The notes under the pieces: generated by a model | What the model was told of the DNA's origin: nothing | Seen by the model: only the letters and a program-made list of their open reading frames with translations | Databases searched by the model: none | Position numbers and translations under genes: made by a program | Shown here: piece after piece, positions 2,655 to 64,000 of the stretch | Layout of the letters: every line of letters begins with the position of its first letter | How positions within the stretch are numbered: the stretch's first letter is position 1 | From: Candidatus Oxydemutatoraceae bacterium | GTDB taxonomy: Bacteria; Pseudomonadota; Gammaproteobacteria; Poriferisulfidales; Oxydemutatoraceae | Length of the DNA: 64,000 nt | Reading direction: 5' to 3' | Assembly (NCBI GenBank): GCA_965220085.1 | Contig: CBDCOZ010000001.1 | Coordinates: 32,001 to 96,000, forward strand

Positions 2655-2719
2655 TTGACAGGCAGCGCCGACCTGTTGTAGCATTGCAAACTTTGAATGC
2701 CAGCAAACAGAACTGGCAA
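2655..2719 (+). promoter_or_regulatory. Promoter/5'UTR module B, copy 1 (TTGACA-N18-TAGCAT, then TGCCAG..CTGGCA hairpin)
   Basis: Homologous to 4275-4339 and 6779-6846; each copy lies just upstream of a secreted-protein gene. Confidence 0.7.
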
Positions 2720-2776: not shown

Positions 2777-2953
2777 ATGAACAGAAACAACATTTTGATA
2801 ACATTCGTAATGGCTATGTCACTATTCCTTTCAGGATGTGCTAGTACATCAGAACTTCACCCTAAAACTAAAGGATGTATGGATATCTGTGACAAGTGCA
2901 AGTGCAGTGATAACGTGTCTGAGTGTTTTAAAGGATGCAACGCGTTGCCCTAG
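2777..2953 (+). CDS. 58-aa cysteine-rich lipoprotein (absent from the ORF track)
   Basis: Hand translation MNRNNILITFVMAMSLFLSG-CASTSELHPKTKGCMDICDKCKCSDNVSECFKGCNALP*; AGGAG RBS; LSGC lipobox. Confidence 0.75.
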   Translation: MNRNNILITFVMAMSLFLSGCASTSELHPKTKGCMDICDKCKCSDNVSECFKGCNALP

Positions 2954-3055
2954 CCACCCAAGATTTTTCCATTTAAGAACTAATAAACTCAGCAATTATA
3001 TGCGGCTTGTGAGCAGTCTGCACAAGCCGCATCTTTCTTTGAGGGGGAGACCGAT

Positions 3056-3334
3056 ATCAAAAAAGCGCTTTTAATCATCCTGACTTTTGCGCCTGCGCTT
3101 GTTGTTGCGAGTCATGCTGTTGGGTGGGAGGAGCCGATGTATTCGGGCAAGCGCAATGTGTATCGGTATCTCGGTTGCCACGAAGACATGAATTATGTGC
3201 AACTGCAACAGTGCGAGGCAGAGGCCGAGCGCATAATGCGGCAACCGGCTAAACCGGCTGAAGCGGCAAAAGCGTCGACAATGACACGCGGGGCAAGTAT
3301 GCGTATAATGCGGCCATCGAGACCTGGGGGGTGA
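3056..3334 (+). CDS. Small secreted protein with ATC in place of the start codon (possible pseudogene)
   Basis: GGGGAG RBS, then ATC-KKALLIILTFAPALVVASHA signal peptide, in frame with ORF 3137..3334. Confidence 0.45.
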   Translation: MKKALLIILTFAPALVVASHAVGWEEPMYSGKRNVYRYLGCHEDMNYVQLQQCEAEAERIMRQPAKPAEAAKASTMTRGASMRIMRPSRPGG

Positions 3335-3602
3335 TCGGAAAAGTTGCAACTATGCGCCGGAGCAAATGTTTCTCTGGCATCGGTCGCATAGTAAAACTGT
3401 CCGGTGCGTTGACAGAACCGTTACCGTGACAGAGCAGAAGACTCGATAACATTCCTCAGGTATCGAATGGAGTGGGGTGGCATGCGAAAGCATCGCCGCT
3501 CTGCTCCGCTTTTTGCAATGCGAAGCTTGCGCTCCGATCAGTTGATTGGTAACCCGTAGCATCGCGCGAACAACGAGCGACACCGCATAACGAAACTTTT
3601 TA
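3316..3602 (+). ncRNA. Candidate structured ncRNA 1, copy 1
   Basis: Follows ATGACA-N17-TATAAT; multi-helix fold conserved in the diverged copy at 6081-6378 with compensatory changes; no family recognised. Confidence 0.6.
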
Positions 3603-3760
3603 AACGTTCATAGTCTATGCTGTGGCGCTTTTCGAGTTGAGCGCCGCAGCACTCCGTAGCACAAACATGAAGCGCGAGGTGGACGGGCGGCCAAAGTTAC
3701 AACGGTCGCAAGCGACCGATGGAACTTTGCCCCCGCGCCGCCCGTGTGAGGCCGGTGCGC

Positions 3761-3926
3761 GACCCCGGCAGAAACACATCCGAGGCGCAAGCCAACCGCT
3801 TTGCGCAGGGAGTGCGAGCGTGCCGAGCGCGTACTGCGCCGCCAGCGCAAGCCGCCCTGTGCGCCGGAACAACCGCAAGCCCTGCGCCCGCCTCTGTGGC
3901 CGGCGCACAGGGTGGCGCCGAGCGAG
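3761..3926. ncRNA. Candidate structured element 2, copy 1
   Basis: Homologous to 6505-6670; 13-bp stem with a compensatory pair between copies; strand unknown. Confidence 0.5.
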
Positions 3927-4274
3927 AGGGTGGCCGCTGGCACCCGGGCCGAGGCAGCGGCCACTGCCCGCGACAGCCAAGCACAGCGCCGGCGACAACT
4001 GCGGACGCGGGCGGTGGCCGCTTGGTGCAGCGGCGAGCGCGCCGGAGGCGAAGAGTGCCCGCTGCCACCGGTGCGCGACAGGGTGTCCCCGCGGCCGGCG
4101 CGCGGAGGTCATGTGCCGTCGTGCGCGAAGTCATGCCGTCGAGGTGCGCGCACAATGGCCGCCGCTTGCGACAGCGCAAGCGTCGCCTGCGCACACCGGT
4201 GAAGCACCAAGCGACTGCGACGCCGAGGGATGATCCGTAATCATGCCGCAACCACATTACTACGGGTAGCCCAA

Positions 4275-4339
4275 TTGACAGGCAAGCCCTGCCTGTTCTA
4301 TAGTTGCAGACTTTCAATGCCAGCGGACAGAACTGGCAA
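4275..4339 (+). promoter_or_regulatory. Promoter/5'UTR module B, copy 2 (TTGACA-N18-TATAGT)
   Basis: Near-consensus sigma70 boxes; repeat of 2655-2719. Confidence 0.75.
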
Positions 4340-4357
4340 GCCTGCGATGTTTGAGGA

Positions 4358-6001
4358 ATGAAAAAATTACTTTGTATCATCCTGTTACTGGGGGCGGCAT
4401 CAGTGTGGGCAAACCCCATGACTGTGCCCCAAGATGTGTTAACCGTAGCCCAAGCCGACGGCTCCGAACCGAACCCTTTGCGTTTGCGCTTGCGCGTATT
4501 CTTGGAAGGCCCCCTGCGAGGGGGTAGCGGCTGTTCGTCTTCGTTGGGGGCCTACAGGGGTCGCGAAGCGATGTACTCGAAACTAGCAGCAGCCGGGGAG
4601 CCCCCAAAAGCCGAAGCTTCAAAGCCAATGAAATCTCAGGCTGTAGAACCCCAAGTCAAGGAGATCAAAATTGCGGGAGCCGCAACGCACGACAACCCCT
4701 TGCGGTTGCCGCGATTCAGCGAACAGGAAGAGCAAGAAATCCTCAAGTTAATCGAAGACAAAACAAGATTTTATACAAGCATCCCAAGAGAAGCGAATGT
4801 CGGCACAAACCACTGGGAGAACGTCGGACGAGAAGATGGTTTTGACATTTGGCAGTTGCATATCCATTCGCCCGAGGCTTTCGGCTTGCAAGTTGACTTT
4901 TCTGAATTTGCCTTGCAGGAGACTATGTTGGTTAAGGTGTATGGAACAAGCGACAGCGAGATGCCTTTTATCGGGGAGTATACGAGCGCGCGGGGGTACG
5001 AGGGCAATTTCACCTCCATATCCGTTCCCGGCGATACGGCGGTCGTAGAAGCATGGATGCCGATTGGCAGCGGCGCAGCGGCAGACTTCCCCTTCAAGGT
5101 CAGGCGTATCTATCATCAATTCAGAGACCGCGCAAACAATGTCAGAGGAGTGAAAAGTTTTTCACTTAGCGAAAAGCAAAATTATCCTACATGCCCCCTT
5201 CTGGATGGCCGCTGTCATTATCCGGGCGTGCGACTCCAGCCATGGCGAGCCACTGTGCAAATACTGGCCGACGGCAGCGCTTGTAGCGGGACTTTAATTA
5301 ATAGTCAGGATAGCAGCTCTTTCCCTCCGGATAGCGCTCTTCTTTTAACCGCTTACCATTGTATTGACAATATGGCAGACCCGGAAGCGGCAAGAGGCAC
5401 ACGCGTAAATGCCACGTTTAGCATCGGCTCATCGCCTTGCGCAAGTCCGCCGAACAGACCTACTGCCGCTGCCAGTGGCGCCCGATTTATTGCCGCGAAT
5501 CGGCAGGGTGATTACGCACTCTTGCTGGTTGAGAACATTATAGGCGACGGTGTGCTTTTGGGTTGGCGGCCCGGCAGACTGCCGGTGGGAGCAAGCCTTC
5601 AAATATTTCACCACGGAGTGGGGGTATCAACACAACAGTATGCAGAGAGCAAAGTAACGGGTTTTTCACTACACAGCGGAACAGGCGCTTTTCGTGATTG
5701 TGGAAATTCTTCCGGGTGTTCACACTATAGTCTCCACTTAGCAGAGGGCGGCACAAGAGGGGGATCATCCGGCGGGGGATACTTTGTAAGGGGCAGTGAT
5801 GGGGAGTTTTTCCTTAATGCTGTCCTTACGCATGGGAATCGGCGCACTTGCACAAACAAGGCTTCTTTGTTGCAGAAAATTAGCGAAGATGGCAGGGTTC
5901 TGTGCGCTCTTAGTGCGGGAGGGTACGGTTATGCTAGACGCGGTCAGCAATGCGCTGATAGTGCCCGCCCATCATATGGCCTTACAGGCCAGCAATGTTA
6001 A
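4358..6001 (+). CDS. Secreted trypsin-like (S1, lysyl-endopeptidase-like) protease with the LRLRLRVFLEGPLR motif near the N-terminus
   Basis: Signal peptide; CSGTLIN, LLTAYHC (His), GDYALL (Asp), GSSGG (Ser); long prodomain. Confidence 0.85.
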   Translation: MKKLLCIILLLGAASVWANPMTVPQDVLTVAQADGSEPNPLRLRLRVFLEGPLRGGSGCSSSLGAYRGREAMYSKLAAAGEPPKAEASKPMKSQAVEPQVKEIKIAGAATHDNPLRLPRFSEQEEQEILKLIEDKTRFYTSIPREANVGTNHWENVGREDGFDIWQLHIHSPEAFGLQVDFSEFALQETMLVKVYGTSDSEMPFIGEYTSARGYEGNFTSISVPGDTAVVEAWMPIGSGAAADFPFKVRRIYHQFRDRANNVRGVKSFSLSEKQNYPTCPLLDGRCHYPGVRLQPWRATVQILADGSACSGTLINSQDSSSFPPDSALLLTAYHCIDNMADPEAARGTRVNATFSIGSSPCASPPNRPTAAASGARFIAANRQGDYALLLVENIIGDGVLLGWRPGRLPVGASLQIFHHGVGVSTQQYAESKVTGFSLHSGTGAFRDCGNSSGCSHYSLHLAEGGTRGGSSGGGYFVRGSDGEFFLNAVLTHGNRRTCTNKASLLQKISEDGRVLCALSAGGYGYARRGQQCADSARPSYGLTGQQC

Positions 6002-6080
6002 TGGCCGGCGGGGCTCTGGGGCGCAAAACGGCTAAAGCGGCAACTGTTGCCCGTGGGGAAAATATGCATATAATGCCACT

Positions 6081-6378
6081 ATCACGATTTGAGGATTGAT
6101 TAAAAAGGTTGCAACAGTCGCCGGGGGCTCTTCTCCTTTAGCGCCCGACGCGTAGTGAAACTGTCCGGCAAGCATGTAAACTAATCGCCGAGACAGAGCA
6201 AAAGACTCGATATACATCCTCAGATATCGAACGGAGTGGGGTGGCATGCGAAAGCATCGCCACTCCGTTCCACTTTGTGCAATGACGACTGACACAAAAT
6301 TGTTTCTGTCGATGAGTGGAGCGGAACACCGGAGCATCGTACGAACAACGATCGACACGACCGAACGAAACTTTTCAA
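6081..6378 (+). ncRNA. Candidate structured ncRNA 1, copy 2
   Basis: TATAAT at 6069-6074; same helices as 3316-3602. Confidence 0.6.
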
Positions 6379-6504
6379 ACATTTGCAGTCTATGCTGTGG
6401 TGCGTTCCTGATGGGCACCACAGCACCCTATCGATCTTAGAAATGCATCGGCGCATCATCGACCTGCCGGACGACAGCACAAGAAGGAAGCGCCGCCCGC
6501 GTGA

Positions 6505-6670
6505 GACCCCGACAGAAACACATCCGAAGCGCAGGTCAACCGCTTTGCGCAGGGAGTGCGAGCGCGCCGAGAATGTAATGCGTCGCAAGCGCAAGCCGAC
6601 CAGTGCGCCGGAACAACCGCAAGCCCTGCGCCCATCTCTGTGGTCGGCGCACTGGGCGGCGCCGTGCGAG
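6505..6670. ncRNA. Candidate structured element 2, copy 2
   Basis: Homologous to 3761-3926. Confidence 0.5.
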
Positions 6671-6778
6671 GCGGTCCGTCTTCGCCGAGCACAAGCACCG
6701 AGCCTACGCCTGTTGCGCCGAGCATACCCACAGAGGTCCCGCAATAAGAATAAAAATCGCGTTTCGTAGTCATGCCAT

Positions 6779-6846
6779 TTGACACGCAAGCGCTACTTGT
6801 TCTATAGTTGCAGACTTTGTATAATGCCAGCAAACAGAACTGGCAA
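6779..6846 (+). promoter_or_regulatory. Promoter/5'UTR module B, copy 3 (TTGACA-N18-TATAGT)
   Basis: Repeat of 4275-4339. Confidence 0.75.
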
Positions 6847-38063: not shown

Positions 38064-38411
38064 ATGTCGCAGATAACATTTGACAGTCATCGTTTTGTAA
38101 AGGGCGCGGTTGAAACGGGCTTTAGCGAAAAGCAAGCCGAGTTTCTGGCAGCTGCTCACAGATTTTTCACCGGGCATATTGCTACGAAGGAAGATATCTT
38201 TGGCTTGGGGAAAAGAATAGATGGCTTGGAGCAAAGAATAGATAGGTTAGAGCAAAGAGTAGATGGCTTGGAGCAAAGAATGGACAGGCTAGAACAGAGA
38301 ATGGATAGCTTGGAGCAGAGAGTGGATAGTCTAGAAAAAACGATGTGGCGTATTGCTGTTATGCAAATGGGTTTTATTTCTATCTTGTTTGCTTTAATAA
38401 AGATCCTCTAG
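38064..38411 (+). CDS. DUF1640/CCDC90-like coiled-coil membrane-anchored protein
   Basis: FDSHRFVK...GFSEKQAE...ATKEDI, five LEQRxDx heptads, C-terminal TM; GGAG RBS. Confidence 0.8.
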   Translation: MSQITFDSHRFVKGAVETGFSEKQAEFLAAAHRFFTGHIATKEDIFGLGKRIDGLEQRIDRLEQRVDGLEQRMDRLEQRMDSLEQRVDSLEKTMWRIAVMQMGFISILFALIKIL

Positions 38412-44072: not shown

Positions 44073-45455
<1,383 letters not shown>

Positions 45456-45889
45456 GCGCCGCCCGCGGCAGGCAAGCGCCCGTCGCCTGTAACGCCCGCA
45501 AAGCCGACATCATCCTGTCGGTCAACCGCCGCCCGGTTTCCGACTTTGACGAAATGGAGACCGTCATAGAGCGCGACAAAGCGCTGTTGTTGCGCCTGCA
45601 ACGCGACGGCAAGGTCATCTTTTACGCCCTGCGCCCGTAGGCGCCGCCCGCGGCAGGCAAGCGCCCGTCGCCTGTAACGCCCGCAAAGACGACATCATCC
45701 TGTCGGTCAACCGCCGCCCGGTTTCCGACTTTGACGAAATGGAGGCCGTCATAGAGCGCGACAAAGCGCTGTTGTTGCGCCTGCAACGCGACGGCAAGGT
45801 CATCTTTTACGCCCTGCGCCCGTAGGCGCCGCCCGCGGCAGGCAAGCGCCCGTCGCCCGCTCAGCGCAACGATCTGCGCAAAGACGCGC

Positions 45890-61441: not shown

Positions 61442-63319
61442 ATGAGCGCATCCCGACAGATTCTTGAAAAAGCAAAAGACGCAAGCGCCGGGCTTTATGA
61501 CGAGCTCACTCCCTTTGCCCGCTGGGTCGGCGAACTCAAAAGTCAATCGGTGCTCAAGTGCGATATCATCGCCGGCATTACGGTGGCTCTGGTTTTGATA
61601 CCGCAATCGATGGCCTATGCGCAACTGGCGGATTTGCCGCCCTACTACGGTCTCTACGCTTCGTTTTTGCCTGTCGCTGTGGCGGCGGTTTTCGGATCAT
61701 CCAGGCAACTTGCGACCGGGCCGGTCGCGATCGTGTCTTTGCTGACTGCTTCGGCGGTGGGGCCGCTGGTCGCAACTGCGGGCGGCGAAGCCTTCATCGC
61801 TTATGCGGTTCTGATTGCGTTGATGGTCGGGGTGATTCAGCTTGCGATGGGTCTCATGCGTCTTGGCGTGCTGGTCGATTTCATTTCGCACCCGGTTGTC
61901 ATCGGCTTTACCAACGCCGCGGCGATCATCATAGCGACTTCGCAGCTCGGACCGATTCTCGGAGTATCCGTTGAGAGGGCTCCCTACCATTACGAGACGA
62001 TTTGGAATATTATGCTGGCGACCGCTGATCAGGCGCATTGGCAGAGCCTCGGCATAGCGGCTTTGTCCCTCGCCATCATGCTTGCGGCGCGCCGGTTTGC
62101 GCCGAAGTGGCCGGATGTTTTGTTGGCGGTGGCGGTTGCCACCTTGTTGTCGTGGTGGCTCGGGTTCAAAGAAAATGGCGGCATGGTAGTCGGCGAGATA
62201 CCGCAGGGCTTGCCTGATTTTTCGGCGCCGACGGCCAACTTTGAGATGATTCGCGAGTTGTCGGGGGCGGCGATTGCCATCGCGTTGATCGGTTTTACCG
62301 AAGCGATCTCCGTCGCCAAAGTGATGGCCGCGAGCACCCGCCAGCGGCTCGATGCCAATCAGGAGTTAATCGGGCAGGGGCTCTCTAACATTGCCGCCAG
62401 TTTTTCACAAGGCTATGCGGTGTCGGGTTCTTTCTCCCGTTCGGCGGTTAATTTCTCGGCGCAAGCGGTGACCGGGTTTTCTTCGGTCGTGACCGCTGTC
62501 GTCGTCGGCTTTACGCTGTTGTTCTTAACGCCGCTGTTTTACCATTTGCCGCAGCCGGCCTTGGCGGCGGTCATCATTCTGGCGGTGGCCGGCTTGATAA
62601 AGGTCAAACCGTTTCTGCATATCTGGAAAGTGCAAAGACACGATGCGGTTGTTTCGCTCCTGACGTTTCTTTTGACCTTGGTCTTTGCGCCGCACCTTGA
62701 GAACGGCATCTTGATTGGCGCGGCGCTCTCCCTCGGCTTGTATGTCTATCGCACGATGCGCCCGTCGGTAGTCCTGCTGGCGCGGCACGAAGGCGGCGGC
62801 TTCCGGGATGCGACCAAAGGGATACTCAAGACCTGCCCTAAAATTGCGATATTGCGCTTCGGCGGCCCTTTGTTCTTTGCCAACACGGGTTATTTTGAAC
62901 ACAAGATATTGGATCGCGTGGCGAGCCAGCCGGAACTCCGGTTCATTATCATTGACGCGGTTTCCATGAATGAGATCGATGCCACCGGCGAAGCCATGCT
63001 GCACCAACTTGCGCGCCGGCTGGTGGAATTGCATATAGAGTTTCTCTTCGTTCGGGTGCCGGCGCCGGTGATGGAGACCCTTGAGCGCAGCGGGTTTGCC
63101 AGCGCCGAATGGGCCGATCACTTTTTTATGGATCGCAAAAATGCTTTGGCGTTTGCGTGGCGCAAGCTGGCCGAGCGCAAAGATACCGAGTGTTCGGTAT
63201 CCGCTTGTGATACCCGTGATCTGTCGAGTTGCGTGTTGCATTCCTCGCCGCGCACGGCCAATCCGTTTCTCAATACGGTGGCCGGACGGTTCAAAGGCCC
63301 GACGCATACAAAAGAGTAA
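61442..63319 (+). CDS. SulP family anion transporter with STAS domain
   Basis: PQSMAYA, GSSRQLATGP, ANQEL, GSFSRS, LFFAN. Confidence 0.93.
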   Translation: MSASRQILEKAKDASAGLYDELTPFARWVGELKSQSVLKCDIIAGITVALVLIPQSMAYAQLADLPPYYGLYASFLPVAVAAVFGSSRQLATGPVAIVSLLTASAVGPLVATAGGEAFIAYAVLIALMVGVIQLAMGLMRLGVLVDFISHPVVIGFTNAAAIIIATSQLGPILGVSVERAPYHYETIWNIMLATADQAHWQSLGIAALSLAIMLAARRFAPKWPDVLLAVAVATLLSWWLGFKENGGMVVGEIPQGLPDFSAPTANFEMIRELSGAAIAIALIGFTEAISVAKVMAASTRQRLDANQELIGQGLSNIAASFSQGYAVSGSFSRSAVNFSAQAVTGFSSVVTAVVVGFTLLFLTPLFYHLPQPALAAVIILAVAGLIKVKPFLHIWKVQRHDAVVSLLTFLLTLVFAPHLENGILIGAALSLGLYVYRTMRPSVVLLARHEGGGFRDATKGILKTCPKIAILRFGGPLFFANTGYFEHKILDRVASQPELRFIIIDAVSMNEIDATGEAMLHQLARRLVELHIEFLFVRVPAPVMETLERSGFASAEWADHFFMDRKNALAFAWRKLAERKDTECSVSACDTRDLSSCVLHSSPRTANPFLNTVAGRFKGPTHTKE

Positions 63320-63474
63320 CTGTCGGCCCGGCGGCCGTCTCAAGAGCGCAACTCGCACAAAAGAGTCGCTGTCGGCCCGGCAGCCGTTTCAAGAGCGCGG
63401 CTCGCACAAAAGAGTCGCTATCGGCCCGGCGGCCGTTTCAAGAGCGCAACTCGTACGCGAGAGTCGCTATCGGT
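63319..63474. repeat. 49-bp tandem repeat x3 including the trmB 3' end
   Basis: TCGGCCCGGC.GCCGT.TCAAGAGCGC..CTCG.AC..AAGAGTCGCT units. Confidence 0.85.
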
Positions 63475-64000
63475 CTGCCGGCCAGCAGCGCGCGCTTTTC
63501 AAAAATCGTTTGCGGACGCGCGATGTGTTCGCGCGGACAACGGCGATACCGCTTTGTGCTTTCCACCGCCGCGCGCATCTCTTGCGCATAAGGTTCTGAG
63601 TCGGTCGCCAGGCAGAGCAGGCCGCCGGGTTTCATCTTGGGGAGGAGTGCGGCGATGAACTCCGCTTTGACCAGCCGCCGTTTGTGGTGACGCTTTTTCG
63701 GCCACGGGTCGGGAAACATGATCATGACCCGGCTGAGACTGTCGTTCGGCATGCGCTCAAGGGCTTTGATCGCATCGTCGCAAATGATGCGCAGGTTATC
63801 GAGCGAGAGCGCCGCCGCCTTGCGCAAGAGCGAACCGACGCCGGAGCGGTACACTTCAATGCCGAGGAAGTTTTGTGCGGGATTGCCCGCCGCCATTTGC
63901 GTGATCAGATCGCCGTTGCCGCAGCCGATTTCAAGCACGACGGGCGCGGGTCGGGCAAATATCCGCGCCATGTCAAGGCGCGCGCCGCCGAGGTCTATGC
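63438..64000 (-). CDS. trmB: tRNA (guanine-N7)-methyltransferase, 5' end outside the window
   Basis: LEIGCGNG, FPDPWPKKRHHKRR, ATD...YA. Confidence 0.95.
   Translation of the reverse strand, partial: IDLGGARLDMARIFARPAPVVLEIGCGNGDLITQMAAGNPAQNFLGIEVYRSGVGSLLRKAAALSLDNLRIICDDAIKALERMPNDSLSRVMIMFPDPWPKKRHHKRRLVKAEFIAALLPKMKPGGLLCLATDSEPYAQEMRAAVESTKRYRRCPREHIARPQTIFEKRALLAGRPIATLAYELRS

Follow-up and report, generated by a model that had tools for sequence, protein, structure and literature searches.

A candidate folded RNA carried with its own promoter in four diverged copies in a Candidatus Oxydemutatoraceae genome

A stretch of 64,000 nucleotides (nt) from Candidatus Oxydemutatoraceae bacterium (contig 1, 32001-96000; CBDCOZ010000001.1, GCA_965220085.1), referred to here as the window, carries two copies of a repeated module that contains a candidate structured RNA of about 290 nt. 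The genome (2.49 Mb in three contigs, 55.8% G+C, 99% complete) carries four. The best-supported account, which looks real from the sequence, is that each module encodes a plus-strand, promoter-driven folded RNA that is selected for its helices and junctions and was duplicated with its promoter in arrays of secreted-protein genes. Our leading but tentative explanation is that the four diverged copies, duplicated with their promoter, are a lineage-restricted gene whose product is a folded non-coding RNA that would likely bind a protein or a ligand.

Copy 1 (window 3316-3606, plus strand; whole-genome search, alignment, and folding) and copy 2 (window 6081-6381, plus strand) had been described in a first-pass annotation of the window, and every feature listed there was present in the sequence at the position given. 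The two copies stand, but the total of two does not: the whole-genome search retrieved two additional full copies (copies 3 and 4), one at contig 1, 25642-26037 (plus strand), which is 6 kb upstream of the window, and one at contig 2, 90753-91148 (minus strand), which is outside it. The four copies lie at 25.6, 35.3, and 38.1 kb of contig 1 and at 90.8 kb of contig 2. A covariance model built on the 127-nt core of the RNA (R1) gave all four copies 147-153 bits, and the rest of the genome never exceeded 20 bits. The pairwise identity among the four copies over the RNA was 72.5-85.4%, and copy 2 was the most diverged (72.5% identical to copy 1). Contigs from one public DNA run spanned the whole stretch.

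The length of about 290 nt holds for the RNA itself but not for the repeated unit, for which the aligned length is about 650 nt, to ~3935. A 55-nt insertion was found behind TTGCAATG in copies 3 and 4, and copy 2 has 44 nt of the same insertion. The homology with copy 1 stops at ~3867, ~3927, and ~3945 in its three comparisons. At the other end, the upstream 330 nt of the module is absent from copy 2, and the points at which homology starts differ between copies. The downstream part of the repeated module (3650-3935, plus strand) runs into a G+C-rich stretch and has no conserved frame; the corresponding conserved segment of copy 2 (6495-6675, plus strand) is 86% identical to 3751-3931.

Each of the four copies is preceded by a near-consensus sigma-70 promoter, consistent with the upstream promoter with TATAAT that had been proposed for the two copies in the window. 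The promoter of copy 1 (3281-3309, plus strand) is of the sigma-70 type and reads ATGACA-N17-TATAAT, which agrees with 11 of the 12 consensus positions, and the promoter of copy 2 (6047-6074, plus strand) reads TTGCCC-N16-TATAAT, which agrees with 10 of 12. ATGACA-N17-TATAAT (11/12) also precedes copies 3 and 4. The positions of the promoters agree with the transcription starts predicted near 3316 and 6081. The transcription of the RNA and the position of its 3' end are inferred.

The secondary structure was analyzed using the four-copy alignment A3, to which the column numbers below refer. Three helices were common to all models. They join columns 39-49 to 69-80, 86-94 to 112-121 (the CTGTCCGG helix), and 158-174 to 179-196 (a hairpin capped by GAAA). 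In the CTGTCCGG helix and the GAAA-capped hairpin, 100% of the cells were paired. The latter, noted earlier as a long GNRA-capped helix, is a bulged hairpin of 17 base pairs (bp) that is fully paired in all four copies, with pairing kept at each of its five variable pairs. The T-A to C-G swap reported between the helices CTGTCCGGT/ACCG-T-GACAG and CTGTCCGGC/GCCG-A-GACAG proved to be real, with a U-G intermediate in copy 3; across the four copies, pair 94-112 reads U-A, C-G, U-G, and U-A.

The 5' domain can be closed by its leader, in which the first ~22 nt of the transcript (CUGRGGR...AUYGR) form a helix with YCCUCAG...UCGAU, alongside a pairing of UUGC with GCAR. This leader-closed fold was the minimum-free-energy fold in three of the four copies and was within 1.5 kcal/mol of it in copy 2. 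Pair 12-149 in the leader closure is C-G, U-A, U-G, and U-A in the four copies, and several other pairs switch between G-U and A-U. The proposed fold was 93.1% paired (93-96% over the range of proposed structures), and sliding the partners by 1-3 columns reduced the value to 32-46%. On the plus strand of copy 1, the closing helix of the 5' domain, identified by folding and alignment, is formed by 3322-3338 with 3443-3461; it is followed inward by a 4-bp helix (3344-3347 with 3434-3437) and two hairpins with variable loops (3350-3360 with 3380-3391 and 3397-3405 with 3423-3432). The GAAA-capped bulged hairpin occupies 3469-3507, and the less structured 3' region holds the invariant CGAACAACGA and AACGAAACTTTT.

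The differences among the copies were distributed unevenly over this structure. Variation affected 27 of the 36 columns in the two large hairpin loops, compared with 34 of 116 in the stems (Fisher p = 1.6e-6). The loops of copies 1 and 2 were 33% identical (12/36), which is near the random level, and the remaining positions were 81% identical (131/162). The earlier remark that the loops diverge freely was supported, since the two large hairpin loops are near saturated while the helices survive 15-27% divergence. An alternation of loop and stem every 10-20 nt would be unlike gene-conversion tracts. Among the variable pairs, 17 G-U and 6 A-C were counted (one-sided binomial p = 0.017), and the numbers were 16 and 4 (p = 0.006) when the poorly aligned inner pairs of one helix were excluded. 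Such an asymmetry would be anticipated for a plus strand that is read as RNA and in no other case, and it fits an RNA of that strand. The folding z-scores calculated from dinucleotide shuffles were -6.0 (copy 1) and -2.4 (copy 2) for the plus strand and -1.5 and -1.6, respectively, for the minus strand. Taken as indirect signatures of selection on the structure, these three contrasts (loops and stems, G-U and A-C, folding energy) are significant. As the first-pass annotation had noted, no open reading frame (ORF) is conserved inside the RNA, which contains indels of 1 and 55 nt. Downstream of the RNA, the indels are not divisible by three, and no frame is conserved.

These patterns bear on a reading in which the module is functionless intergenic DNA, repeated through segmental duplications in a recombination-prone array, with hairpins that are relics or DNA-level features. 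The genome is rich in repeated intergenic modules, including terminator hairpins, a hairpin referred to here as H2, a promoter family, and a C-terminal tail motif. The ends of the module vary between copies, as recombination predicts, and no homologue was found in the other collections searched. However, neutral decay would not put stems of ~81-87% identity beside loops of 33-39% within 10-20 nt, nor would it favour G-U over A-C, and a near-consensus promoter has been kept in all four copies. We consider a functionless repeat improbable.

The RNA had been reported to match no known family, and a search of Rfam 15 (4227 models) with the window and all four copies agreed with this. At the Rfam gathering thresholds, the window contained two transfer RNAs only. 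Copy 1, searched at E up to 10, gave two chance matches on hairpin H2 (13.7-14.4 bits against cut-offs of 34 and 90), and copies 2-4 gave no match at E up to 1. With blastn, copy 1 matched none of 60 relatives. R1 gave no credible match in 18 other genomes of the family, and the two weak matches there were rejected: one (E = 0.067) falls within an ORF of 410 amino acids (aa) that is PilC/GspF-like by eye, and the other (E = 0.93) has most helices missing. Two R1 matches in 150 genomes of the class were also rejected, each falling within a long ORF (431 and 807 aa). In the species-wide genome collection, the pattern for a 20-mer of the junction had no match, and the helix pattern had 10 matches compared with ~16 expected by chance, none of which was confirmed by R1. 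The pattern scan of metagenomes gave one chance match, which R1 did not confirm, and the pattern scans of viral contigs gave 0 and 1, the lone match being just the 21-nt hairpin. Literature listings on structured or repeat RNAs of sponge symbionts contained nothing relevant.

Several of the results weigh against a gene for a folded RNA. The four-copy covariation score was matched by 44 of 500 shuffles, and the number of pairs changed on both sides (four) was matched by 95 of 500; neither is significant. Over the 3' third of the alignment (A3 columns 197-349), the copies do not fold consistently. Conservation extends both to the leader pairing and to the combination of the TCGATA hairpin with AAAAGTT/AACTTTT, which exclude each other, and the fold given here is therefore provisional. 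Across all the collections searched, the RNA was found in one genome only; because no homologue was found outside this genome, the structure rests on four related sequences. A sequence scan found no intrinsic-terminator-like site 3' of the RNA behind any of the four copies, and this would be no less in keeping with a leader than with an RNA that stands alone.

The second of the two exclusive states is the architecture drawn in the first-pass annotation. Its helices AAA(A/G)GTT/AACTTTT, GCA/TGC, and TCGATA/TATCGA are complementary in all copies, but they do not stand as the favoured fold: the model closed by AAAAGTT/AACTTTT costs 6-15 kcal/mol more than the leader-closed fold in every copy. If this architecture were the active one, the RNA could be a compact junction of several helices, such as a ribozyme. 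The three pairings are intact in all four copies, and neither strand of the closing helix varies, although the sequences around it do. Yet the helices are invariant except for one A-U to G-U change and hence show no covariation, the leader pairing would form first during transcription, and no ribozyme family in Rfam was matched. It is quite improbable that the architecture is active in this form.

The explanation that we favour, a duplicated gene for a folded RNA, would work as follows. The near-consensus sigma-70 promoter would fire at ~3316 in copy 1 and at ~6081 in copy 2. Within a 5' domain of ~155 nt, the leader CUGRGGR...AUYGR would pair over 14-21 bp with YCCUCAG...UCGAU and enclose the 4-bp helix and the two hairpins, giving a three-way junction. 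The 17-bp bulged hairpin with its GAAA cap would come next, followed by a looser 3' region in which inserts of 0, 44, or 55 nt would be tolerated and two invariant stretches would be kept. The transcript would probably end at or near the generic hairpin H2. Selection would maintain the helices and the junction sequences and leave the hairpin loops free. The RNA would most likely act through its fold, with a protein or a small ligand as the partner, rather than guide by antisense pairing; action through the fold is favoured because the loops are unconstrained and no complementary target was found in the genome. Partner binding is likewise inferred.

The genome was searched for such targets. There was no match of at least 16 nt to the RNA proper in either orientation, beyond a 30-nt stray piece of copy 1 and its shorter matches to the other copies. 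The complements of the invariant single-stranded stretches occurred at most seven times outside the copies, with no enrichment or pattern. An antisense or guide role for the loops or the invariant stretches was rejected, as no target was present in the genome. An Hfq-type trans-acting small RNA was also rejected: no terminator lies behind any copy, and the complements of the invariant stretches showed no pattern. If the RNA is transcribed and functional, it would represent a bacterial RNA family that is new and in which selection on the fold has left an unusually clear signature within a single genome. It would also illustrate, in nature, how a promoter can be copied together with a structured RNA before unrelated genes. 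Its value appears limited for now, as it is known from one genome only.

The genes behind the copies bear on a further possibility, in which the module is a portable promoter-plus-leader cassette and the RNA makes up the structured 5' portion of a long untranslated leader that controls the next gene in cis. Rho-dependent termination, processive antitermination, or riboswitch-like sensing could be the means, acting on read-through or stability. A gene on the same strand follows each module. These four genes are not related to one another, and they encode a secreted protein of 547 aa, a PPC-domain protein of 183 aa, a membrane protein that weakly matches Cache, and a protein that is TPR-like by eye. 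There is no intrinsic terminator between the RNA and the next gene, and a simple scan found no other promoter of at least 10/12 before the next gene of copies 3 and 4. Two conserved pairings that exclude one another could serve as the states of a switch, and both their competition and the missing terminator agree well with a leader acting in cis. On the other hand, the next genes of copies 1 and 2 have their own promoter (11/12) just upstream, and the start codons of the next genes are ~750-1050 nt from the RNA start, across untranslated sequence of 75-79% G+C. The conserved part also stops well short of the genes, and the alternative state is the less stable one by the energies given above. 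We regard the cassette as the main rival explanation, possible but doubtful.

Similar sequences ahead of unrelated genes form a known class, the putative mobile promoters, in which highly similar promoter-bearing non-coding sequence lies upstream of unrelated genes in one genome, and some of which carry riboswitches or RNA motifs (PMC3575422). Families of these were defined at -150 to -50 from the start codon with at least 80% identity (Nijveen, Matus-Garcia and van Passel 2012, PMC3575422). As a descriptive class, this fits the module, in that four promoter-bearing copies precede four unrelated genes of one genome. The module differs from the class in that its unit is a structured RNA of 290-350 nt at 750-1050 nt from the start codon, and a separate promoter serves two of the four downstream genes. 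A bolder version, in which the RNA is the founding member of a new class of folded RNAs of ~300 nt, the junction and the GNRA hairpin bind a partner, and the module is a self-contained, portable promoter-plus-sensor switch, appears rather unlikely. If this switch were real, the two exclusive pairings would decide whether RNA polymerase continues into the gene before which the module has been copied, and the module would rewire secreted-protein genes.

The candidate RNA can also be compared with known RNA classes. OLE, GOLLD, ROOL, raiA, and HEARO are orphan large structured RNAs of bacteria that were found by comparative genomics. They resemble the present RNA in being several hundred nt long and non-coding, with multiple helices, a GNRA hairpin, and conserved junctions. 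In contrast, the present RNA has no Rfam match, is known from one genome, is only ~300 nt long, and shows no significant covariation. HEARO in particular had no Rfam match; IscB was not searched as a protein. CsrB/RsmZ, 6S, and the bacterial Y RNAs are regulatory RNAs that bind proteins; they have their own promoter, act via their fold, and sometimes occur in several paralogous copies; the module would share with them its promoter, its several copies, and the proposed action through the fold. It differs from CsrB/RsmZ in that GGA motifs number 3-5 per copy by eye, which is about the chance level, so that there is no CsrA-type enrichment. It differs from 6S and Y RNA in that it has no 6S-like rod, no Y-RNA match in Rfam, and no intrinsic terminator.

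The scaffold is conserved, and its two hairpin loops of 17-19 nt vary from copy to copy; it could also belong to a non-autonomous mobile element, or to a guide RNA in which the two hypervariable loops specify targets. The multiple copies and the capture of a piece of copy 1 as a CRISPR-type spacer would fit this. The termini do not. A miniature or non-autonomous element was rejected, as shared defined termini are lacking (the ends at ~3867, 3927, and 3945, and copy 2 without the upstream 330 nt), and the variation of the homology ends from copy to copy thus excludes a discrete transposable element. The suggestion of a non-autonomous element made in the first pass was abandoned on these grounds and on the absence of any TnpB or IS110 gene from the genome: PF07282 and PF01548 had 0 matches each, by which TnpB omega RNA and IS110 bridge RNA were rejected as well. 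The loops have no genomic match beyond chance, and the two large CRISPR arrays, with 126 spacers in all, include none that matches the module. Such an element or guide is very unlikely. The functionless repeat, the mobile or guide RNA, and the exact architecture of the first pass are all less likely than the favoured explanation and the cassette.

Retron msr-msd was rejected as a further candidate. The genome has only two reverse transcriptase genes, of retron types IX and VI, at ~170.1-170.7 kb of contig 1 and ~1.926 Mb of contig 3; both are far from every copy (>130 kb off or on another contig). The retron regions extend over ~168.6-170.9 kb of contig 1 and ~1925.6-1926.5 kb of contig 3. The type IX reverse transcriptase has HEPN and helix-turn-helix (HTH) partners, and the type VI one is beside a type III restriction enzyme gene. 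A type II trans-activating CRISPR RNA (tracrRNA) was also rejected: the four modules, aligned locally with both CRISPR repeats in both orientations, scored 5-8, and shuffled repeats had means of 6.5-6.9 and maxima of 9-12. Elsewhere, at contig 3, 42689-42716, a repeat-like stretch of 26-27 nt is a possible tracrRNA anti-repeat.

The stray piece is a perfect 30-nt match to window 3463-3492 (plus strand), which comprises the 5' strand and loop of the GNRA hairpin of copy 1. Its position is contig 3, 707931-707960 (minus strand), where exact direct repeats of 36 nt flank it on both sides, and a third, degenerate repeat unit follows 65 nt beyond, the whole region being contig 3, 707825-707996 (minus strand). 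The 66-nt insertion leaves in frame an ORF-like stretch whose end is the genome-common tail RLRLFLEGPLR. The type II CRISPR locus of the genome has 36-nt repeats, 56 of its 63 spacers are 30 nt long, and it includes a 1145-aa Cas9 matching the NCBIfam Cas9d model, with Cas1 and Cas2. Since a 30-nt insert and a 36-nt duplication match the sizes of the type II array, the geometry is that of spacer insertion by the CRISPR integrase. The duplicated 36-nt sequence resembles neither CRISPR repeat of the genome, and the site is a non-CRISPR one. The stray copy looks like a fossil of the capture of a self-derived spacer by the CRISPR integrase. Off-target spacer integration by E. coli Cas1-Cas2 is mentioned in PMC7054753, which cites Nivala et al. 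2018 for it. Compared with what is mentioned there, the spacer-sized insert of 30 nt and the repeat-length duplication of 36 nt are alike, whereas the present case is natural, fixed, and within an ORF-like stretch, with a duplication unlike either CRISPR repeat. The stray spacer would have survived because no guide RNA is made outside a real array. It shows that DNA of copy 1 was sampled by the adaptation machinery and says nothing about the function of the RNA; it would be a tidy natural case of a CRISPR integrase placing a self-derived spacer at a site that is not an array.

The regions that hold these two large arrays (64 repeats each) are contig 2, 218560-222873 and ~223.0-227.7 kb, and contig 3, 1907098-1911070. 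The array that does not belong to the type II locus has repeats ending in a Cas12a-type motif and lies beside a second Cas1.

The absence of a conserved ORF is true inside the RNA but not directly upstream, where a small ORF, ORF X (3035-3334, plus strand), is conserved in three of the four copies (copies 1, 3, and 4) and absent at copy 2. The homology of these three copies extends ~330 nt further upstream and encodes ORF X, which has a signal-peptide-like N-terminus and a mature part of ~55 aa with two Cys. The ORF X proteins of the three copies are 81-86% identical. Their core, NVYRYLGCHEDMNYVQL.QCEAEA, differs between copies 1 and 3 by six synonymous third-position changes and an in-frame deletion of 9 nt, and ORF X is therefore probably a real gene. 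It has no canonical start codon and would probably start at an ATC behind a GGGGGAG Shine-Dalgarno sequence. The last, unconserved codons of ORF X overlap the RNA promoter, and its stop lies within the 5' stem of the RNA. No relative of ORF X was found in 52 other genomes of the order or in a large protein collection. A comparison of the end of ORF X with the downstream segment gave a weak likeness (score of 26; shuffle mean of 19.8, maximum of 26). A short ORF at the 5' end of the RNA was rejected, its length and frame varying between copies. Upstream of ORF X, a Cys-rich ORF of 58 aa (window 2777-2953) with a lipoprotein-type signal (LFLSGC) lies between a promoter of the family described below and a terminator hairpin.

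Hairpin H2 has a 10-bp stem and lies behind the RNA at 3620-3649 in copy 1 (CTGTGGCGCT...AGCGCCGCAG, plus strand) and at 6395-6423 in copy 2 (plus strand), where a C-G to U-A change in the stem is fully compensated. It belongs to a family (GTCTATGCTGTGGCGC...GCGCCGCAG) found in the window at 2602-2640, 3613-3649, 6388-6423, and 964-982 and at six or more other sites in the genome, with the stem kept by compensatory changes and the loops variable. Elsewhere in the genome, H2 sits directly behind G+C-rich hairpins of the terminator type, which gives a hint that it marks the 3' ends of transcripts. It may be a 3'-end or processing element. An ATG behind H2 was rejected as the start of a gene, as the frame that it opens is not the same in copy 1 as in copy 2, and the frame of copy 1 is interrupted by a stop in copy 2. 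Further downstream, the non-coding G+C-rich stretch (window ~3700-4240 in copy 1) has 75-79% G+C in a genome of 56%. A fifth, partial copy of it, without the RNA, lies at contig 2, 180302-180469. ORFs in this downstream part were rejected as candidates, with no Pfam match.

The 547-aa ORF behind copy 1 encodes (window 4358-4527) a signal peptide and, 38 residues on, the tail motif NPLRLRLRVFLEGPLR, after which the reading continues; it has the look of a mini-gene that collapsed and, having lost its stop, became joined to the following ORF. The C-terminal tail motif has ~184 matches in the genome at up to 9 mismatches in 39 positions. A family of near-identical, strong promoters (TTGACA-N18-TATAGT or TAGCAT) occurs at window 2655-2684, 4275-4304, and 6779-6808, with a shared 5' leader and unrelated secreted-protein genes behind. 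The window also contains tandem repeats at 45312-45866 (three units of 185 nt), 38184-38330 (six units with a 21-nt period), and 63287-63482 (49-nt units).

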